Virus record (IMG/VR): IMGVR_UViG_3300029305_003084
Origin: a virus
Taxonomy: Duplodnaviria > Caudoviricetes
Length of the DNA stretch: 64,000 nt
Direction: 5' to 3' (one strand)
A model generated the notes under the pieces. It was given only the letters and a program-made list of their open reading frames with translations. It ran no database searches and was not told the origin of the DNA. This document shows, piece after piece, positions 17,312 to 64,000 of this stretch. Numbering within the stretch: the stretch's first letter is position 1; each line of letters starts with the position of its first letter. Made by a program: the position numbers and the translations under genes.

Positions 17312-20300
17312 TTGAAGAAAAAGTTTATATATGATTTAGATACTACAAATATATCCTTTATACAAACTGCAGTTGATTTAAAGAAATTAGGTATTAAAAA
17401 TAATATGTTTTTTCTTAAATTATTTGATCCTTCATTAAAAGGAGTTGATCCATTCTCTCCATTTTTAACAAACGATCAAATATTTAGAATCATTAATGAA
17501 TGTATTATTAATCCTTGGTATTTTTTAAGAGAATGTGTTAGAATTCCAGACCAAGGTAATCCTGCTGGTATTTCATATCTATTAAATCGTGCTAATTTAG
17601 CAGAAGCATGGTGTTTCTTACATAATATTGATCATTATCTAGTTATTCCTCGTCAGATTGGTAAAACTCAATCAGTAGTTGCAATTATAAATTGGACTTT
17701 TTTATTTGGTACAACAGACTCCGAATTTATGTTCTTGAACCTATCACAAGAAAGAGCTCAAGAAAACTTAGGTAGATTAAAAGATCAAAGAGATTTATTG
17801 CCGCCTTATTTACAATTTAAAATTGCATATGATGAAGAAGGTAACGAGATTAAAAAGATTGATAACGTAAAATCTCTTAAAAATATTAATAACAACAATA
17901 AGATCATTACAAAGCCCTCTGCTAGAAGTAAAGAGGCTGCAGAACGTATTGGTCGTGGTAACACTCAAACTATTCAGTTCTATGATGAGTTTGAATTTAT
18001 TTCTTATATTAAAACTATTCTTGAGGCAGCGGGTTAATTTGGCCCCTATATACAGTGATGTATATAGCAAACTCCTTTAATTGCTGGGAACTCCTTAATG
18101 GACAATCAGCAGCCAATATTTAAAAAATATTTTGAAGAAAACATCTCTTAAAGAGGTGATTGAATTTATGTATATTACAATTAATGATGAACCTGAAGTT
18201 TTTGTTGATTTAAACCATCCGGATATTCCAAAAGGATTATATAAAATAAGTAATTATGGTAATATCTATAATAATATAACAAAAAAATATCGAAATATTA
18301 CTGGTAGAGACAAAGATGGTTATGTACGTGCACCATTTAAATCAATTAGTAAAAAAGCAATATATTTATATATACATAGATTGGTGGCGTTCCATTTTTG
18401 TGAAGGTTATGATGAAAAAACTGGAAGAGTTTATGTAAATCATAATGATTGTATTAGAGACCATAATTATTATAAAAATTTAACATGGGTTACAGTTCAA
18501 GAAAATAATAAACACTCTTATGAACATGGATCGGCGAAACCAAATATAACGCATTTACATGGTGAATTAAATGGTTTTTGTAAATATCCAGATAGTACCA
18601 TTCATTTAATATGTAAATTATTACAGGATGGCTTAACACCAATGGAAATTATGAATAATTTCGGGTATCCTAAATATTCTAGTAATATTCTATTTTATGA
18701 TTTAATTATACGAGTAAAGAATAGACGAGCTAGAACTTTTATTTCTTCAAAATATATTTTTTAAATAAGGTTCAACGACTATTCCGAAAGGAAGTACACT
18801 CAAGTGAGTGGAAACAGGGAGCATCTCATTAGAGATGAAGATATAGTCTCATCTATATGGTGACATATAGCAGTTCATAAGAGAACGGCATAGAATTAAC
18901 GACTCTATGTGAAGATAAATGCCTGCCTTTGTTACTGCATCTGAAAATGCAAAACGAAATGGAGCTCCGACGGCTCGTGTGTTCACGAGTACTCCTGGTG
19001 ATCTAGATACTCAATCAGGTCAAGATGCATTAGAAATAGTTGAGCAGACATGTAAGTGGACTGAAAAATTTTATGATATGGAAATTGAAGATGTCCAAGA
19101 ATACATTGCTACAAACTCTGGCAATAACATTGTTTATATTGAATATTCATATAAACAACTTGGTAGAGATGAAAACTGGTTTAATAAAATCTGTTCAGTC
19201 CTAAATAATGATAAGATGAAAATTAAGCGAGAAGTATTTCTACAGCGTTAACCTGATAGCGCCGTATCATAGTAATATGATATTAAACACTTTTCTAATT
19301 GCTGGAAACTCCTTAGAGCCTAAAGTACCAAAGTGTAATAATCTTTAGGATTGGACAATCAGCAGCCAAGCCTTATATAAATATATAAGGAAGGTTCAAC
19401 GACTATCGAAAATAATGATGATATGTATGTAATAAATATCATATTATGAGTAGAGTACACTCAAGTGAGTGGAAACGGAAAGCTCCTAAATTATTTTAGG
19501 ATGATGATATAGTCTGATCTCTATAGAAATATAGAGCAGTTCTTAAATGAACGGCATAAGAGTAACGACCTTATGTGAACATAAATGTTGCATGGTAGTA
19601 GTGATTCTCCTTATGAACCTGAAGATTTAGATGCTATTCAAGAGCTTAAAGGTAAGATTCTTGAAGAAATTTTCATTAATCGATTATTTAAGCTTGATGT
19701 GTATGAGAAACTTGATAAAAATAGAATTTATTTTGTTGGTGTTGACGTTGCTGGTGGTTATGGTGCGGATAACTCAGCAATCACTGTTTGGGATCCATAT
19801 GTAAGAAAAACAGTTGCTGAATTTAGATCATCTAATATTGGTGTTAAAGATTTAATTAAGTTCATATATGTGTTAGTGAAGAAGCATATTCCTAGAAGTA
19901 TTTTATTTATAGAAAGAAACTATAATGGTGAAGCAGTTCTTGATCATTTACGAGATACTGATATACGTGGAAATTTATACTTTGATAATTCTAAAGATCC
20001 TATGGCTGATTTAGATGAAAAAGTTGATAAGAATGGTTTCTTAAGTGTAGAAGCTGCTAGACGAAGACTATATGGTGTATATACACACGGTAAGTCTAGA
20101 GAATTGATGTTTGAAATTTTAGCACTATATGTACGAGAACATAAGGAATCTTTTGTTGGTGCATATGTTATTGATGATTTAATGAAATTAGTTCGTACAA
20201 AAACAGGTAAGATTGAAGCAGGACCTGGTATGCATGATGACAGTATTATGTCATTCAATATGTGTCTATATGGATACTATTATGCAAATAATTTATCTAG

Positions 20301-29883: not shown

Positions 29884-32000
29884 TTATTCAATATCAATTT
29901 CAATTGGATCACCAATAAATAACTTCTTTACATAATCAATAATGAATCTCTTTCTAGGTTTGATTTTAAATTCTTTACGGAAATCTTCTTGTACGGTATT
30001 AACATCAGGAAGATTAAACCATTTATGAGCAACAGAAAGTACATCTCCCGTTAAATAGTTATCCATAAAGTCTTTACCACTATCATAACCCATATTTAAA
30101 GTATTAACTTCATCTTCATCATCTTCGTCATCATCATTATCTACTCGATCAACAATCTTATCATCAACAAACATATGACCATAAGTGTCTTCAGTTATAC
30201 TAGGAATAATTAATTTACCTATCATACTACAACGTTCAATATTATGTGCAATGATAATATGCGGATACATCGAGCTGAAATCCATATCGATAACATTATC
30301 GAATACATACATTGAAGGCATACCGAATAATTTATATCCAGTATGTGAATTTAGTAAGGGATTACCAACCACCGCACCAGTGAAGCCACTTTCTGCATCA
30401 GGAGTAAAAATATTGACATTATTACCTAGTATATATCCTTGCAAAATATATTCATAATAAGCCCTTGACTTGAGCATCGTTTATGTTCACATAAGGTCGT
30501 TAATCTTATGCCGTTCTCTTATGAACTGCTATATGTTACCATATAGACCAGACTATATCATCATCTCAATATTGAGATGTCTCCCATTTCCACTCACTTG
30601 AGTGTACGTCTTTCGACTAGTCGTTGAACCTTCTCTTATGATTAAGAGCTTGGCTGCTGATTGTCTCAATTGAGAGTTTCCAGCAATTAAAGAGATTTGC
30701 AATATATGTCACCATATAATGGGTCTATACATTAAACCGTTTCTTTGAATATATTATCAGGACTTGTACAGTTTGCACTAAAACGAATATATAAATTTTC
30801 TATATCATTTACCTTTCGCTCAATGCCCATCTGTAATAAGGTATCCTTAATGTTATAAGCAACAAACTTGCGATAATTAATATAAGGAAGTGTTTTAATA
30901 TTTGCTTCATCGGTATAGTCAAGCTTTGTATCTTTTAATTCTTTTTCTGCTATATAATTAAGAGCATTAGAACGAAGTTCCATTTGTCCTTTTCTTGTAG
31001 CAGCATAAAGAATCATTTGATCAATAAATTTTGTATATCCAGATATTTTAAAACTGGAAGATTTATTTTTAACTGCATAGTTTTTTGTATCAATATGCAT
31101 GTTATATTCTTTATATCTGAAATCTGGATGACACATTACACTAGTTGGATCAAGATTTAATACCTTTAATCTTTCAATAATATATGGAAGGTCAAACCCA
31201 AATCCGTTATACACTAGACAATAATCACGTTTAAGAGTATTAATCAATCGAAACACATTTATGATAAGATCTCTCTCATCATTATACATATATATCTTAT
31301 AATCTAAATAACCATAAGACTCATCAAACATATCATGTAACTCAACTACAAAATTATCAATATCAGCAACAAATTCTTTAATTAATGGATTATTTTCATT
31401 ATTTAAAAGGAATGTATAAACTGTTTTTCCTTCATCATCAACAACTGATACTGCATTGATTGGACATTCACCTTTTGTCGGAACACCAATATGATCAATG
31501 ATATCAACCTCGATATCTAGATATGTCTTTGTAATTGGTTTATTTAAATCATTTTCATAATTCAAATGCCACATGATTCGATACCATGTATCAATTGGTA
31601 TATCTGAACCAAATACATAAGGATATGATTGAATTCTAGATAATTCCCGATACTGTTTTGTATCAATCAATCTTTTTAGTTCATTTACATACTCTTCACC
31701 TGCTTGTTTTGCAATATACCAGGGAAGACCTTTAAATTGACAAGTGTGTTTTTCACATTTCGAAATTTCCATATGTGTCTTATTATATGTATAATTTCGA
31801 TATTCATTTTTTAAGAAATATATTTCTATTTCAGGATTCAAAATACTTTTTAAGTGTTTTTCTCCTGTTTTTAAATCTTTATATATAATATCAATACAGT
31901 CTACTCTATCATTATCTTTATTTGGTCTATGATAAATTACATCTAGTAACATAAGAGAATCTTTATTTGGTATGTTTCCTAGAAAATCCATACAATACAC
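29884..32000 (-). CDS. Family B DNA polymerase, N-terminal subunit (3'-5' exonuclease + motif A), spliced: exons 32000-30735 and 30477-29884
   Basis: ExoI LDIEV, ExoII YNGFGFDLPYI, ExoIII YNIKD, motif A DMDFSSMYPHII; in-frame join ETV|MLKS. Confidence 0.88.
30478..30734 (-). mobile_element. Group I intron 3 (DNA polymerase), ORF-less, 257 nt
   Basis: GGTT|...GACC P1; conserved cores; ends ATAAACG. Confidence 0.9.
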
Positions 32001-32120: not shown

Positions 32121-33783
32121 TAATTCATTAATAGACCATGAAACTATTTCATAAAATGATTTTATTTATATCATTCCCTCTTATTGATACTATCATTATC
32201 AATGATTCATTTTTTTAATAACTGATACAAATACACTCCCATGATTCATTCTGTTCTCATGATACTATGAGTTAGCTTGATTTATTTTTCATCACATGAT
32301 ACTATATTTCTCGATGATTCATTTATCCTGATGTGATGCTTATATTTTTTAACTTAATTCATTCCGTTCTTATGATACTATAAAACGGGACGATTCATTG
32401 AATTAATTTTGGTACTATCAATGACATGATTCATTAGTACTACATGATACAGTTATGTGAAATGATTCATTAGTAAACTATGATACTTTACATTAATTTG
32501 ATTTATTTAATATCGTATTTTACTATGATTTCAATTTGTTACTCATGACTCATTCTTTGGTAAAGATACTATCATATACGTATGATTCATTCTCCTTTTA
32601 TGATACTATTGAAATGATATTGATTTAAGCATTAATGAAATTTGTTACTATGTATATTGCACTCTGATTCATTAAACGGTTTTGATACAATTTTTTTCAT
32701 ATTGATTCGTTTCAGCGTTATGGTACACTCAGTAAATCTGATTCATTTTTATAATATGATACAATTATTATTATATGATTCATAAATACGTCCTGATACT
32801 ATTAATATGGATGATTCATTACCTCACGATGATACTATTTTTGGAACTGATTCATTGTAATTTTGATACTATACTTATCCATGATTCATTTCAACACTCT
32901 GATAATATTGGACCGCCATGATTCATTTAATTACTATGATACTAATAGCTTCGTATGATTCATTAATATCCTCTGTTACTGTTATGATATATGATTCATT
33001 ACATCACCGCGATATTATTGTGACATATGATTCATTAAGTTAATTTTGTTACTATCAACGACATGATTCATTTATCTTCAATGATACTATAATAGAACAT
33101 GATTCATTAATACTACATGATACACTTATGTAAAATGATTCATTTATGTTATATGTTACTATATAGTTGAATGATTTATTTAATACGTTTTATTTCCTGG
33201 ATTCTATATACTTATATGACTCATTCTTTGGTAAAGATACTATTCTATACGTCTGATTCATTCTAATACTATGATACTATATATTTTAATGATTTAAACA
33301 TTATATGAAATTTGTTGCTATATATTTATTGCACTCTGATTCATTCCATTCGTTTGATACAATTTCCCTTGTTGATTCATTTAAGCGTTATGTTACACTC
33401 AGTAGATCTGATTCATTTTCACAATATGATACAATTTCGTTATATGATTCATTCCAACTCTCTGATACTATATAAGATGTTTTGATTCACATTACCCTGG
33501 ACTGATACTATTTTTCTTTTGTTGATTCATTGTAATTTATGATACTATATCTATCCATGATTCATTAGGTTCCTATGTTACTATTATGGGATTTGACTCA
33601 TTCATTTTTATGAAACTTTTCTTGACTTAGATTCATTCAACTTTCTGGTACACTTCAAATATGCTTTGATTCATTTTGTTTCAATGACACTATATTATTC
33701 AATGATTCATTAATTCAAATTGATACGATTCCTCCATATGATTCATTTACTGATATTGATACTAACACCTTTCCTGATTTATG
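32121..33783 (-). ncRNA. Array 1: about 45 x 36-bp dual-repeat/dual-spacer units (TIGR-like)
   Basis: Plus strand TGATTCATT-N9-TGATACTAT-N9 repeated; I count 45 TGATTCATT-like boxes; no ORF; own promoter at 33786-33803 and terminator at 32081-32119. Confidence 0.8.
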
Positions 33784-33825
33784 ATTATAATATATAATTG
33801 AAAATCCTTTTTATTTTTATAAAAT

Positions 33826-40749: not shown

Positions 40750-43852
<3,103 letters not shown>

Positions 43853-54875: not shown

Positions 54876-57800
54876 TCATAATTTTTCTTTAAAGAATGGA
54901 TCAACAAAAGAGGTTCCAGTCTTACGGAATGTTAGAGGAGATAGTAACTGTCTTCCTAAGAATTGGAAAGATAGACCAATTAATACAGACGGGTGTTTCT
55001 CTAATGCACCACTTACTGTTAACATCTGTGTATCCTGTAATGCACTATATTTAGTAAAATCAGGTCGTTCTAATACATCAGAAATAGAACGAATTAAAGG
55101 TGTTAGTAGTACTTCTGCATGAACACTCATAATATCAATACTAGACTCAATCATTAGATCCATCATAGATTGTACTAAATCATTGACAGTTTCAATACCT
55201 AATTTCCTACGCCCTTCTCTAGTGTCAAGTAAGCCCATGATGTCATATAATGGTCTAGTTAATTCTCTATTTTCAATCTCAATTAAGAATAGTCTACTTT
55301 CATCTTCAATATCATTGAAATTAATTTCATAAATTTCAGGATCACCTTTAGGATGTTTCATTAGTTTCTTTAATTCAGGTGTAATGTAAAATTCTTTCAT
55401 AGATTTTTCATTCATTTCCATGATCTCACCAGTATTATTATCTATAACATGGAACATTGTGACGAAAGAATTTAATTCACCTTCATTTAATTCACTCATA
55501 GTAATGATATTATCTTTAAAGATTAACAGAGCGTAATTATCATCATCACTATCTAACATATTTAAAGTAATTTCATTTGCATTAAGAGAAAAGAATTTAC
55601 TGAATTTTTCACTAAATTCAATTTTCTCAGATGTTGTTGTCAGTAGATGTTTTGTTGAGAGGATTCTCTGTGATAAGGGTTCGGTGATCACAGCTCCAGC
55701 AAAAGACCCAATACCAAGACCATAATTGGTATGGTAATTAATTGGACCATAACAACATTCACAAATACCTTTCTTTGATGCACATGTAATAGGCGATTTA
55801 ACTAGAATCTTTTTACCAATAATATGAGTATCAGATTCAGTTAACACTTTATAATTTCTTTCATGTGGTAATTTATACATTCTACCAATCAATCTGTCCA
55901 TATGCTTTTTAGTTTTAATTTCAAGACAAATTGGATGAACTGATCTACAGTGTTTTTTATTTTCTCTTAATCTAATATCAGAGACTAAGAGCATACATCT
56001 TCGGGCAAAGGCTGTTTATATTCACATAAGGTCGTTACTCTTATGCCGTTCTCTTATGAACTGCTACATATTTCTATGTAGACTAGACTATATCTTCATT
56101 TTAGATTTTTCTAAAATGTTTCCCATTTCCACTCACTTGAGTGTACGTCTTTCGACTAGTCGTTGAACGTTCGTTTAAAAATATTTAAAATTTATAATAA
56201 TTTGAAATATCTGTTCGTCTTTCTCTATTTTTAATATTGCGAACATATCTACTACTACATCCAACAATATTTGCAATTTGACTAATTGTTAAATTGTTCT
56301 CCTCTAATAATTTACATATCATATGAATTGAGTCGTTGGAAACTTTATTCATTAATCTTGGAAACTCAAAATTTTTTGAAATATGTGTCCATGTATTACG
56401 ATTATTTATATGATATATAGTATCTTCGGAAATATTTAATATCTCAGATATTTCTTTTATAGATTTATTATTAGATAACATTTCACAACATTTTAATACT
56501 GTCTCGTCATTAATTTTAGCAAAATTACAATTTTCACCAATATTTGATCTATTATCACATAATCCACTATCAAAAGCATGTTTTATATTTTCACTATGAG
56601 TACACCATTCTAAATTATAAACACAATTATTAGTCTTATCGCCATTACAATGATTTACTTCTAAATCATCATATGATAATCCTTTATCTAAATATTTTTT
56701 AGGAATAGGAATAAATGTCATTGCAACCAATCGATGAATTTTACATTTTTTAGTATTATCACCAAGTTTTAAATTAACATACATATATCCTTTTTTATAT
56801 TTACTGATAGATAATGGTTTATTACTTAACATGCTATATATTTCACCGTTAGTAGAGATTATATAATCTGAATACTGTATTCCATTTACATAAAGAGGAC
56901 TTTTCATATAAATATCAATTAGTAACATATTAATATCACTTCCTTTCATTAATATAATATATAATTGAAATATATAAAATAACGATTAGTATTGTGAATT
57001 GTTAAATATATTTTTAAACGCTTCGCTGCGGATTGTCCAATCTTATAATCTTTTTACTATACCTAAGGCATTACCCTTCGCCCTTATCTATATCACTATG
57101 ATAAGTTAGTAATTATAAGCTCTAAGGAGTTTCCCGCAATTAGAGAAAATTCATTATGTCAATATGACATAATGGGCACACAATTTACCAGATTCCATTT
57201 ATCTTCACATAAGGTCGTTACTCTTATGCCGTTCTCTTATGAACTGCTATATGTCACCATATAGATGAGACTATATCTTCATCTCTAATGAGATGCTCCC
57301 CATTTCCACTCACTTGAGTGTACGTCTTTCGACTAGTCGTTGAACCTTCCTTATATAATATAAGGCTTGGCTGCTGATTGTCTCAATTGAGAGTTCCCAG
57401 CAATTAAAGGAGTTTGCTATATACATCACTGTACATAGGAGCTAAGTTTAAACCTCGACCCATTTTGCTTTTGTTCATAATAAGGGACTTCCTGCCTCCT
57501 AAACTGTCGATGAAATATCCACTAATTGTATTTAAACCACCAACAACTAAATTAGAATTAATAGGAATAGGAATTGTTTCACCAGAAATATTAGGTTTAA
57601 GACCAATATTTCCGGAAAATTCGAACAGTTGCTTATCCTTTATACCTGCACCAACGTTTAGCATAGGCTTAAGATCATTTTCTTCATTTTTCAAAATCTC
57701 AATTTCTTCACGCATTAATTTATGAAGATATTCTTCAATTTCATTAGGTTGCCAACTAGGATCAACCTTCGTATGAAGAATTTCATTGAATCTTTCATTA

Positions 57801-59841: not shown

Positions 59842-59957
59842 AATATATACTCTCCTTTCATAGTTATATTCGTTATTTTATTGTGCTTAATTATTTTGAT
59901 ATAAATTCACCCTTTAAACACATATGTAATAGAATAATGTGAGGAGGAATTTTAAAA

Positions 59958-61078
59958 TGAGCAACAATGAAGGTTATTATGTAATTGATATTGTTACTGA
60001 AGACTCACGTCAATCTATTTTAGATGAAATGAAAGCTCTTAGTAACTTTTCAGTAAAGAAACAAAAGATTGATGATATTGAATCAGGATCATTAGTTATT
60101 AGTGAAATTGCAACTACTAAAAAAGAAAAACCGAAAAAGAATAAAAAGAAAAAGAAATCATTATTAATTGGTGCATTTGATGATGAAGACGAAATCAACG
60201 AAGAAGGAAAAACTCGTCAAGAAATTGATGAAGAATCATTATTAGATGTTGATTTAATTATGAGAGAACTTGAAGAAGAAGAATTAGATGAATCTATTAT
60301 TGGTGAACAAAAGAAAAATTATAAAAAGAATAAAAAAGATAATAATGATTTTAAAAAGGAATTTGCTGATGAATTAGCATTATTATATAATTTATTAGAT
60401 GAAACTTCTAAATTTGGTAAAGGATTAGAAAAAGATTTAAGTCAATTAAAAGGTAGTAAGGTTAGAGGTGTTTCTAAATACACCAATGATTTAACAGAAC
60501 TAATTCTTACATCTAAACAAAATAAACTAAATATTCTAAAAGAAATCACTTCTGTAAAGAAAACAATTGCTGATCTGAAAATGAAAGCAGAAGCAAAAGA
60601 TAAGCAGAAAGATAATGGTACAAATAGTCCTGAGTATCTAGCATCTGCATATCTACGTAATATTTTAAATCATGGTAGAACTGACTTCATTTCTACAATT
60701 TCTAATAATGGTATTGATCCAGATAATCCTTCATTATTATCTTCTAATGACTATATTGATGAGGAAGATGATGATAAGTACACTAAGTTTATGATGGATA
60801 GACTTGATAGTGATGAGAATCCTTATCGAAGTTCTGAAGGATCTAAATATATTGAATATGAAAATGATGATGTTAAATTACATGTAAAAAAATGTATTGA
60901 CACTGGTGAGTGGGAATTTGTTGCACTAACTAAAACTGGTAAACAACTATATGATTATCCTTTACCTAGTAAACGAGATGCTGGTAGAATGAAATTTAGT
61001 GATGATGGCAATTATGCAACTGATGCAAAAGGACGTATGTATAATGTAATTGAATATTTCCTTCCTGATGATGATTAA
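59958..61078 (+). CDS. Late hypothetical protein (charged, coiled-coil)
   Basis: Late promoter 59917-59928; GAGGAGG RBS before MSNNEG. Confidence 0.55.
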
Positions 61079-61082
61079 ATAT

Positions 61083-61121
61083 AAAAAAGACAGATAGAAA
61101 ATTTTCTATCTGTCTTTTTTT
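61083..61121. terminator. Bidirectional terminator closing array 2 transcript
   Basis: AAAAAAGACAGATAGAAA-A-TTTTCTATCTGTCTTTTTT. Confidence 0.75.
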
Positions 61122-61124
61122 ATT

Positions 61125-61376
61125 TTTCCCGGATGATACTATGAGCGTCCTTGATTCATTTTGATACTGTGATACTCTATGTAAAGTTGATTCATTAGGA
61201 ATCCCTGATACAATTTTTTAGATTGATTCATTGTTGCCACATGATACTATCTGAAGAACTGATTCATTCCTTATCCTAGATACTATAACATGGGTTGATT
61301 CATTTTGACGTTCTGATACTATAATACGAGCTGATTCATTCCATATGTATGATACTATGTGAACACTTGATTATGT
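61125..61376 (-). ncRNA. Array 2: 7 x 36-bp dual-repeat/dual-spacer units (TIGR-like), exact 18-bp register
   Basis: Same two 9-mers as array 1, 14 distinct 9-nt spacers, no indels. Confidence 0.8.
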
Positions 61377-61763
61377 AATATAGAACGGTCTTAAAACTTC
61401 ATCAAAGAATTTCTGAAAATCACCATAATAGCAACTCTCAAAATACATTTCTTCAACAAAGCTTTCATCCAGGCCATATTTCATACAACAAAGACTAATA
61501 TTAGCCTTAGTATCAAAGCAGTAATCATCCTTGCTAACATGGTCCTGATAATAGGTGTTCATGGCATCCTGATTACCATCATCAAGACAACGGACGAAAT
61601 GAGACTTATAGACAGTATCTACCTGATCAAGATTAGAAACCATCCAATAGCCAAGGAAAATTGTGCTTATTATAAACACTATTACACCCAATACCATAAA
61701 CTTACACATGGCATCAGAGCAATACATACAAGGATGCTGATTCTGAGACTTATTCTTTTTCAT
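61371..61763 (-). CDS. Early membrane-anchored protein, co-transcribed with array 2
   Basis: TM segment FMVLGVIVFIISTIFLGYWMV; AGAAAGG RBS; stop codon lies inside first array repeat. Confidence 0.6.
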   Translation of the reverse strand: MKKNKSQNQHPCMYCSDAMCKFMVLGVIVFIISTIFLGYWMVSNLDQVDTVYKSHFVRCLDDGNQDAMNTYYQDHVSKDDYCFDTKANISLCCMKYGLDESFVEEMYFESCYYGDFQKFFDEVLRPFYIT

Positions 61764-61814
61764 GATGTTACCTTTCTGGTTTGTGAAGTTTTCCTTCTTC
61801 TTATTAAATAATAA

Positions 61815-61901
61815 TGATTGAGAAGGATCATAGAAAATATTCTAATTATTTCCTTCTTTATTATGATTATAATATATATTTGAAAGTGTTGACTTTACGA
61901 T
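61815..61901 (-). repeat. Duplicated promoter + structured 5' leader (second copy 14477-14562)
   Basis: About 86 bp near-identical between the two loci. Confidence 0.85.
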
Positions 61902-61947
61902 TAAAAAAATACAGAGGATATTAATCCTCTGTATTTTTAATTATTGA

Positions 61948-62376
61948 TTATTCTTCAACAATAGTTCCAATACATTCTGCGGTTTCCCACTTTTCTCTTT
62001 TAGGAGTATTATAATTATCGAGAATGCCTTTCATTCTCTTATATTCACCCTTTACTCTCTTTCTCTTTTCCTGCTTAGGAGTAACATATCTGGATCTTTC
62101 TGCATCCAGAATAATTCTACCAAATAAACTTCCAGAACCAGTATATTTCACCTGAAACATACCAACAGGAGACTTACCATACTCCCGAAGAATAAAGTCG
62201 GGAATAGCCTGATCCATACTCAGGAAGTCGTTGTGTACGGTATGTAATGCTTTCAATTCAGCATCACGATTATGTCGATAGAAAATATCAACTTGATCAA
62301 CATTTACTCCTTCGGACATCATCCAACAAAGCATGGTGTCAACTGCCTTCAGATTCATCTTTTTTGCTTCAGCCAT
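61948..62376 (-). CDS. Early hypothetical protein
   Basis: AAAGGAG RBS; terminator 61904-61938. Confidence 0.6.
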   Translation of the reverse strand: MAEAKKMNLKAVDTMLCWMMSEGVNVDQVDIFYRHNRDAELKALHTVHNDFLSMDQAIPDFILREYGKSPVGMFQVKYTGSGSLFGRIILDAERSRYVTPKQEKRKRVKGEYKRMKGILDNYNTPKREKWETAECIGTIVEE

Positions 62377-62397
62377 GATAGTTTTCTCCTTTAAAAA

Positions 62398-63006
62398 TTA
62401 ATTATTATGTAATTTAATTTTTGCTAAAGAAATTGCGATGTTATATTCTTTAGCAAAAATATTACTGCCATGATTATTGTTCACAGCGGTTTCAAACTCA
62501 TCAATAGTTCCATTGAAATATCCACAAACAACACCAATATTATCATTGATATTATAAAATGTAGTATAATCATTTCTAGAACCAATAGGTCCAATTACTA
62601 AAATATCAGATATTTTAGTAATATTAGCATTTTCAGATACCCGAGCATTTCCAGATACCCAAACATATCCAGATACCTGAGCATCCCCATATACCTGAGC
62701 ATTTCCAGATACCCAAACATTTCCAGATACCCAAGCATCTCCATATACCTGAGCATTTCCAGATACCCAAGCATTTCCAGATACCCGAGCATTTCCATAT
62801 ACCTGAGCATCCCCATATACCTGAGCATTTCCAGATACCCAACAATCTCCATCATGAGAAAGATTTTCTTCTTTCTCAATATATCCACCAAAATCACCCT
62901 TCGTAACATTCCATCTGGGAATATCATGAAGAGCACGAATTTGATACAGAGTTTTATCGGAAATAGTGATGGTATTGTTAGTCAATTCATATTTTTTGTT
63001 TATCAT
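62398..63006 (-). CDS. Hexapeptide-repeat (left-handed beta-helix-like) phage protein
   Basis: KYELT...LYQIRAL...GDFGGYIEKEENLSH.G.CWV followed by about 12 V(S/Y)G(N/D)A(Q/R/W) repeats (18-bp coding repeat, 62630-62845). Confidence 0.8.
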   Translation of the reverse strand: MINKKYELTNNTITISDKTLYQIRALHDIPRWNVTKGDFGGYIEKEENLSHDGDCWVSGNAQVYGDAQVYGNARVSGNAWVSGNAQVYGDAWVSGNVWVSGNAQVYGDAQVSGYVWVSGNARVSENANITKISDILVIGPIGSRNDYTTFYNINDNIGVVCGYFNGTIDEFETAVNNNHGSNIFAKEYNIAISLAKIKLHNN

Positions 63007-63131
63007 GGTACTAATATATCCTTTCTTTATGTATTTATATTATAATATATATTTATAATCTTTAATTTTACGAAAAAATATAAAGATAGAGAATAGTAAA
63101 TACTATTCTCTATCTTTATTATATATAAAAA

Positions 63132-64000
63132 TCACTGATATAAACTCATGCGATTAGAATAACAGAAATAAGTTGTTCCTAAGTGAGGAATTTGTACAGC
63201 TTTCCAAATACCACTACCCTGTCTAAAGTTTGCTTGGAAAACTACACTTTCAGGCATACAACGATAACCTTCTAATAATTTTTTAGCATTATTATAGGTT
63301 CTCTGATCAACTGTATATTTATTAAATAAATGTGGTGCGTACTGACCCTTCTGATAGGCAACACCCCTAACGGTATTAGGAAATTCAGGAGATGCAACTC
63401 TGTTTAATACAACATTACCAAACATAAGTTGCTGTTCATCTGTAATCCAATATGAGCCAGCTTCACAATACATAATTCGTGCCAAAATTTCTAAATCCTC
63501 AGCAGTATAGGAGGAATATTTAGGTACTTCAGGTTCTTTAGGAGGATTATAATTCATGATCGTATAATCTGCAACATATTCTTTCATAGGGTTTTTAAAC
63601 ACTCTATCTAGAATAACACATAACTGTGCTCGAGTTACAAAGTCATCTCCTCTAAATGTTCTATCAGAGAATCCACCAATATATCCTTCTTTAACAGCAT
63701 ATGCGATATATGGTTTCTGTTTATCACTAATTTTATCAGAGTCGGTGAAGAATAAATCAAATACCTCTGTATCGATACCAGTAGTATCAACACCTCTCAT
63801 CTTTAATACAGTAGTGATAAGATCTGATCTTTTAACATTTTTATTTGGCATAAATAGCATATCACCAGTTTCAGTATTTCTCCACTTACCTAAATATGGA
63901 CGTACTGCTTCAACATAAGGAGACATCACACTAGATTCATTGACATCATCAAATGCACTTACTCCTAAATCAACAACTGATAATTCTGCTATATTTGCAA
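63132..64000 (-). CDS. SLH-domain + SleB/Hydrolase_2 cell-wall hydrolase (5' end beyond window)
   Basis: SLH motifs FTDSDKIS..YIAYAVKEGYIGGFSDRTFRGD..VTRAQ; catalytic LARIMYCEA...NVVLNRV.SPEFPNTV; frame stays open to window edge. Confidence 0.85.
   Translation of the reverse strand, partial: ANIAELSVVDLGVSAFDDVNESSVMSPYVEAVRPYLGKWRNTETGDMLFMPNKNVKRSDLITTVLKMRGVDTTGIDTEVFDLFFTDSDKISDKQKPYIAYAVKEGYIGGFSDRTFRGDDFVTRAQLCVILDRVFKNPMKEYVADYTIMNYNPPKEPEVPKYSSYTAEDLEILARIMYCEAGSYWITDEQQLMFGNVVLNRVASPEFPNTVRGVAYQKGQYAPHLFNKYTVDQRTYNNAKKLLEGYRCMPESVVFQANFRQGSGIWKAVQIPHLGTTYFCYSNRMSLYQ

Follow-up and report, generated by a model that had tools for sequence, protein, structure and literature searches.

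TIGR-Tas systems, published in 2025, are RNA-guided DNA-binding systems in which the TIGR arrays contain two distinct alternating repeats of 8-12 nt (designated edge and loop) and 9-nt spacers (Faure et al. 2025, PMC12045711). The published description of these repeats allows divergent box motifs that covary, and minimal TIGR arrays needed full edge repeats for processing. Among the Tas proteins, TasA proteins have been shown to repress under the guidance of RNA (Xu et al. 2026, bioRxiv 10.64898/2026.09.09.750476). Because the published TIGR surveys extract only 5-10 kb around tas, an array located far from its effector gene, such as the one described here, would be missed. This array occupies positions 61125-61376 of a 64-kb stretch of phage DNA (hereafter, the window) and is a genuine dual-repeat TIGR array; unless indicated otherwise, coordinates refer to the window.

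The array and its predicted transcription unit

The array (61125..61376, minus strand) consists of seven units of 36 nt (252 nt, read from 61376 to 61125), each of which was resolved by a strict parser into a 9-nt box A, a 9-nt spacer, a 9-nt box B, and a further 9-nt spacer. Box A has the consensus AATGAATCA and box B the consensus ATAGTATCA; 11 of the 13 full boxes match their consensus. Every unit-to-unit step is exactly 36 nt, and this is the most regular of the arrays in the genome. The original prediction, made from the sequence alone, had described an exact 9+9 alternation of boxes and spacers on the minus strand with 14 different spacers, and both points hold: the seven 9+9+9+9 units show no register slip, all 14 spacers are distinct, and the genome-wide set of 104 strictly parsed spacers includes no duplicates. 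Within the window, the box-N9-box pattern was observed 37 times (1.3 expected; 37 was reached in none of 100 shuffles). Most of the remaining copies fall into a second array (array 1; ~32121-33783), which had correctly been recognized as an array of the same type 28 kb away. Both repeats end in UCA and carry G at position 4, A at position 6, and T at position 7, while the canonical UG (box D) and CCA (box C) are absent.

The ends of the array present the features described for TIGR arrays, i.e., a 5′-truncated first edge, a 3′-truncated last edge, and a terminator. The first box (acataatca; 61368..61376, minus strand) retains the consensus only in its last five bases (AATCA), whereas the terminal edge repeat (aataaaaaa; 61116..61124, minus strand) fits the AATG half with its first three bases (AAT), its A-rich remainder merging into the terminator stem. 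In this genome and in three relatives, true array starts retain only AATCA of the edge repeat, while true array ends mostly retain AATG; as the parser demanded AATCA/AATG halves, the informative part of this pattern is the degeneracy of the opposite halves only. Because it is box A that is truncated at both array ends, box A represents the edge repeat. The truncation pattern would fit cleavage of the edge repeat behind its fourth base, and the same division into four and five bases is found in the published synthetic TaTasR tigRNA1. Predicted mature guides would thus begin with the AATCA of one edge box and end with the AATG of the following edge box.

No stable RNA fold was found for the array (z = 0.13), which agrees with the published description of dual-repeat precursors as being without extended duplexes. 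Complementarity between spacer A and spacer B, as in arrays of the stem-loop type, was not above that of shuffled pairings. A reading of the locus as a structured RNA was rejected on the basis of this fold z-score and of the Rfam matches, all of which are group I introns.

The array is located in the 3′ UTR of an ORF of 130 aa (61371..61763, minus strand) that encodes a protein with one hydrophobic segment and of no known family; this ORF had no match in Pfam or PHROG and no homologue in three related phage genomes. As originally noted, the first box overlaps the stop codon of this carrier gene, with the TAA (61373-61371) being contained in the box (61376-61368). An early-type promoter motif is located upstream of both the ORF and the array (61861..61884, minus strand; predicted start near 61862 by analogy with AR9). 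This motif is a zero-mismatch copy of an 18-nt motif that is present in ~50 copies in the genome and includes the early (virion RNA polymerase) promoter consensus of phage AR9, which has been experimentally defined as AAATATATATTAT, followed by six bases and then the start (PMC5312081). The same 18-nt motif is found directly upstream of array 1, upstream of the tas operon, and upstream of an array at 226 kb in the genome, and every array is co-oriented with a motif matching the AR9 early promoter consensus. By analogy with AR9, these motifs presumably have promoter activity. The ~50 genomic copies of this extended, AT-rich motif include ten perfect 18-mers, most of which are followed by the same leader (ATAAAGAAGGAA...); this pattern of motif and leader suggests a stereotyped cassette, which may combine early promoter and leader.

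Downstream, the array is followed by a bidirectional intrinsic terminator hairpin (61083..61120; 17 pairs, with T-runs on both sides), which is common to the convergent gene 59939..61078 (plus strand); four terminator-like sites were found in the region, as compared to 0.2 expected. The terminator following the array had been part of the original prediction, as had the placement of the array in a 3′ UTR and the orientation relative to an early promoter as in array 1; all three points are confirmed, and the upstream motif is common to both arrays.

Together with three small early-promoter genes, the array makes up a 2-kb block (61078-63132). In one relative, the syntenic site lacks this block, and the orthologues of ORF 59939..61078 and ORF 63132..63929 are only ~60 bp apart; since the flanking genes abut in this relative, the block represents an accessory insertion in this phage. 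No tas-like gene was found near the array, and the neighboring genes showed no toxin family match. Another ORF in this region (62398..63006, minus strand) contains a tandem repeat at 62626-62852 with an 18-nt unit, ~12 copies of 82-88% identity, and higher-order periods of 54 and 72 nt. This repeat is coding, the encoded protein matches the YdcK beta-solenoid repeat and, weakly, bactofilin, and paralogues are present elsewhere in the genome (~24.8-25.3 kb and 231.0-231.6 kb). No strain variants were found in two metagenome scans, which used an exact unit and the ORF end plus the first boxes, respectively.

Five arrays, a single Tas gene, and related phages

The source phage is an IMG/VR record of 247,146 bp that is rated complete and has a GC content of 28.8%; its DNA polymerase shows 35% identity to that of Bacillus phages AR9 and PBS1. 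Five arrays with the same box pair are present in this genome, with ~190 boxes and ~ninety guides in total. In addition to the array in question (genome 57.8 kb), these include array 1 (genome 85.4-87.1 kb; window ~32121..33802, minus strand), an array at 153.1-153.6 kb, an array at 207.5-208.4 kb that is adjacent to tas, lies on the other strand, and contains 16 units with identical repeats, and an array at 226.1-226.7 kb with an early-type motif upstream. The spacers of the array in question (GC = 0.43; p = 8e-4) and of the tas-adjacent array (GC = 0.45; p = 5e-9) are richer in GC than the genome (0.288), whereas the spacer GC of the three irregular arrays is genome-like (0.29 for array 1).

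Array 1 is long (83 boxes) and less regular, with a spacing that is often 10-11 nt or broken, and has its own early-type promoter motif and its own terminator. The promoter motif (33779-33802, minus strand) overlaps the first box; the start predicted by the AR9 rule is located one base before an AATCA half-edge, so that the first guide would need no 5′ processing. Array 1 also contains an internal segmental duplication, in which near-identical units and irregular linkers recur ~670 nt apart (e.g., the boxes at 32546 and 33217, together with two pairs of units showing a single-base difference in each spacer).

Five group I introns were identified in the window (Rfam RF00028, 93-110 bits). Two are on the minus strand, one of them (30529-30744) adjoining an ORF that encodes a DNA polymerase exonuclease domain (30732..32000) and the other at 57247-57461; the remaining three are on the plus strand (19239-19536, 41521-41782, and 41864-42108). 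A 13-nt tandem duplicate with the unit CGTTACTCTTATGC occurs twice, 1.18 kb apart, at 56033-56058 and 57216-57241, with the second copy sitting just before the intron at 57247-57461; these duplicates may mark duplicated exon or intron-boundary sequence.

The sole Tas-like ORF in the genome (477 aa; genome 208596-210026, minus strand) is located directly upstream of the array at 207.5-208.4 kb and ~150 kb away from the array in question. While the latter is therefore not adjacent to tas, the system as a whole has a tas-adjacent array with the same repeats. The Tas sequence matches structures in the PDB over the Nop core (TaTasR 9mty, E 2e-15; TasH, E 1.5e-10), with only 21-27% identity to the solved TasH and TasR proteins, and matches phrog_4285 with E 4e-41; the only Pfam match, to the IS110 C-terminal family, is below threshold. 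For a structural model of residues 1-300 (mean pLDDT 67.7, i.e., moderate confidence), the first 11 Foldseek matches are exclusively TasH or TasR structures, directly followed by the bridge recombinases IS621 and ISCro4, while Nop5 was found at rank 27 with a non-significant E of 1.6. The phage protein thus contains the coiled coil and the Nop domain that are characteristic of the Tas family. No HNH- or RuvC-like domain was found N-terminal to the Nop core, which identifies this protein as TasA-like.

Residues 300-477 form a C-terminal extension of ~180 aa, consisting of a Ser/Asp/Asn/Lys-rich linker and a small domain. This extension had no match to Pfam or other families; the three closest homologues lack it and terminate just past a conserved HxxHVHI motif. 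When the processing dyad of SpTasH (Y289/H296) was aligned, the His corresponded to an invariant His (H286), while the position of the Tyr was occupied by Phe (F279) both in the phage protein and in the three relatives; judging from this substitution, self-processing by the phage Tas appears uncertain. No Tas relatives were found in bacterial genomes or, by single-sequence search, in IMG/VR; a profile search found nine loci.

The original prediction had proposed that the whole genome and related phages be scanned for the boxes and that spacer content be compared. The scan yielded the five arrays described here as well as arrays with the same box pair in five other large IMG/VR phage records. 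All four of these records that are rated complete encode a Tas homologue (40-57% identity), which in each case adjoins one of two or three arrays. No spacers are shared with the related phages, i.e., spacers are unrelated rather than invariant. Repeat type and Tas lineage therefore co-occur across genomes while spacers vary; such a combination, in which boxes and effector lineage are conserved but spacers are free to differ, is expected of a guide-RNA system and supports the TIGR reading. The prediction that the boxes represent a selected, trans-acting RNA format rather than a minisatellite is thus well supported by the TIGR anatomy, by the occurrence at five loci and in four related phages with other spacers, and by the presence of a single distant Tas.

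Proposed mechanism, possible targets, and alternative explanations

A dual-repeat TIGR array that would be transcribed early as part of a 3′ UTR, cut within its edge repeats, loaded in trans on a TasA-like dimer, and used for DNA binding without cleavage is very probably the best explanation for what was observed, namely the anatomy of the array, the homology of the effector to Tas, boxes that co-occur with Tas, and motifs for promoters and terminators. We infer transcription, processing, loading, repression, and target identity from the way the array is built and from what has been published on other Tas proteins. Specifically, the AR9-type early promoter would transcribe the array as the 3′ tail of the mRNA for the small membrane protein, with the intrinsic terminator ending the transcript. 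Mid-repeat cleavage of the precursor, behind the fourth base of every edge, would then yield 36-nt tigRNAs with a half edge at either end and, between these, spacer A, the loop repeat, and spacer B in this order. As there is only one Tas gene and as it is far from the array, use in trans is the only mode available; guides would thus be loaded on a dimer of this single TasA-like Tas, encoded ~150 kb away. Each guide would direct binding to an 18-bp DNA site corresponding to spacer A and the reverse complement of spacer B, and the predicted outcome would be blocking or repression, not cleavage. In the first box, cleavage behind base 4 would sever the carrier mRNA within its stop codon. Because the first edge is truncated and minimal arrays required full edges, unit 1 may not mature.

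Target searches used a geometry in which spacer A is directly followed by the reverse complement of spacer B, which was verified on the published tigRNA1 and its optimized substrate. For self-targeting, 52 strictly parsed units were compared to the phage's own genome with gaps of 0-2, and match counts were equal in the true and in three control arrangements; the few matches with one mismatch involved AT-rich spacers. At the level of paired 18-mers, a match of spacers to tRNA-gene junctions was not supported either. Similarly, no excess over controls was found in the complete sequences of three relatives; when all units of four related genomes were compared to all four, matches were limited to low-complexity AT strings. 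The exact composite targets of units 2, 3, and 4 had no match in IMG/VR. In 596 Gb of species-representative prokaryotic genomes, unit 4 had 17 scattered matches, which equals the chance estimate (~17 per 18-mer); these matches were found in unrelated taxa and represent conserved protein motifs, and three cyanobacterial ones correspond to one orthologous site. The difference between the spacer GC of 43% and the genome GC of 29% points to foreign DNA of moderate GC, and judging from this composition the targets are probably such DNA, e.g., the host chromosome or other mobile elements. The two regular arrays look maintained against foreign DNA of this kind; selection for stable 9-bp hybrids represents an alternative cause of the GC bias.

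A broader scenario, which we regard as speculative and rather unlikely in its entirety, is that one nuclease-free TasA and ~ninety early guides from five dispersed arrays would constitute a programmable silencing system. In this scenario, the two regular arrays with GC-rich spacers (the one described here and the tas-adjacent one) would act against the DNA of the host or of rival elements, the three AT-rich arrays would either be eroding or act against AT-rich phage DNA that is unsampled, and the carrier mRNA would be severed in its own stop codon when the first half-edge matures, so that guide production would also switch off the upstream membrane-protein gene.

Among the alternatives to a functional TIGR array, the one that survives best, although improbable, is that of a non-functional relic, in which an array piece that is TIGR by descent would have been copied into an accessory cassette and would no longer be used by Tas. 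The location of the array within the 2-kb block that is missing from the syntenic site of a relative is compatible with this explanation, as is the eroded appearance of the three other arrays, with their irregular spacing and genome-like spacer composition. However, no other array in the genome is as regular as this one, which has seven exact units and boxes close to consensus, its spacer GC is 14 points above that of the genome, like that of the tas-adjacent array, and it retains canonical truncated ends as well as a terminator, all of which argue against a relic.

It is considerably less probable still that the boxes are read as double-stranded DNA by a binding protein, i.e., that they represent origin iterons or a partition or packaging site. 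Box A does have a 7-bp palindrome-like core (TGA-A-TCA), and the presence of five dispersed clusters could be taken to indicate multiple origins or centromere-like sites; however, each array runs in the direction of a promoter motif and ends at a terminator, spacings of 18 and 36 bp are out of step with the helical repeat of DNA, the end truncation is strand-specific and fits RNA processing, and the boxes co-occur with a Tas protein across genomes. Finally, a slippage minisatellite, a degenerate coding repeat, or a 36-nt RNA repeat like those of type III antitoxins is the least credible reading and is excluded because invariant and unique halves alternate and because no reading frame is free of stops. 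The period does equal that of ToxI-type antitoxin repeats, and the frame of the upstream ORF encounters only two stops as it continues through the boxes. However, each unit consists of unique sequence for one half of its length and of nearly invariant sequence for the other, which slippage cannot yield and antitoxin repeats lack. On the minus strand, two frames are interrupted by a stop in every box and the remaining frame by TAA stops, and the array has no toxin gene as a neighbor.

Comparison with described systems

The guide format found here is not new, since it belongs to the published TIGR-Tas family, which the original prediction had left unnamed. While this kind of system is already known (2025-2026), what is new is its organization, with five scattered arrays of which one is ~150 kb from tas in an unrelated 3′ UTR. 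In the literature searched, no paper paired "TIGR array" with "jumbo phage," and a 2026 jumbo-phage review made no mention of TIGR. Guide arrays can thus be located up to ~150 kb from the effector gene, in the 3′ UTRs of unrelated genes, and several can be present per genome; because such remote arrays exist, array counts and spacer repertoires obtained from tas-centered windows are underestimates. With a genome rated complete, ~ninety guides, a recognizable early promoter class, and two compositional classes of spacers, this phage is also well suited to a search for natural TasA targets as soon as its host has been identified.

Several other RNA systems share individual features with the array. 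ToxI, the RNA repeats of type III toxin-antitoxin systems, likewise has 36-nt units in tandem that are flanked by a promoter and a terminator and occur in a phage-related context, but ToxI units are near-identical throughout and located beside a toxin gene, whereas here half of each unit is unique and a toxin gene is absent. A ToxI-like RNA was rejected because 18 of 36 positions are unique in every unit and because the neighboring genes lack a toxin family match. CRISPR arrays, including phage-borne orphan mini-arrays, are similar in their repeat-spacer logic, a promoter on the leader side, guides that correspond to units, and use in trans by a distant effector; in contrast to these, each unit of the array described here combines two short repeats of different sequence with two 9-nt spacers, which read opposite strands of the DNA, and the phage has no cas genes and no known acquisition machinery. 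Classification as a CRISPR array was rejected because the locus contains two 9-nt repeats and 9-nt spacers rather than a single repeat of 25-36 nt, and because the sole effector-like gene is Tas. Archaeal box C/D sRNAs and the bridge RNAs of IS110/IS621 resemble the predicted guides in having dual guide segments held by a dimer of a Nop-fold protein. Unlike box C/D sRNAs, the array has neither RUGAUGA/CUGA boxes nor a K-turn nor a methyltransferase partner, and no Rfam snoRNA match was found at the gathering threshold; unlike in the IS110/IS621 systems, there is no recombinase domain.

Within the TIGR-Tas family, SpTIGR-TasH (from Salicola phage CGphi29) and TaTIGR-TasR (9w03, 9w04, 21kl, 9mty) provide the best matches to the coiled coil and Nop core of the phage Tas, and a cut in the middle of the edge repeat, as proposed here, would also be shared with these systems. 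Their effectors carry an HNH or RuvC nuclease and cut DNA, whereas the phage Tas has neither domain; in addition, the Tyr of the Y/H processing dyad of SpTasH is replaced by Phe, and the SpTIGR spacers total 16 nt, with 8 nt each. The closest described system is the dual-repeat TIGR-TasA type, exemplified by FpTIGR of Flavonifractor plautii (PMC12045711), with which the array shares alternating 9-nt repeats, 9-nt spacers, and 36-nt units, as well as truncated first (5′) and last (3′) edges with a terminator, a Nop-domain protein without a nuclease domain, and a phage-borne location. Unlike in the described dual-repeat systems, the repeats found here end in UCA rather than CCA and lack the UG at their start, and the phage Tas has the 180-aa C-terminal extension that is absent from its closest relatives. 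Most importantly, while all described loci are adjacent to tas, the array presented here lies ~150 kb away in the 3′ UTR of an unrelated gene and is one of five (~190 boxes) scattered across a 247-kb genome.
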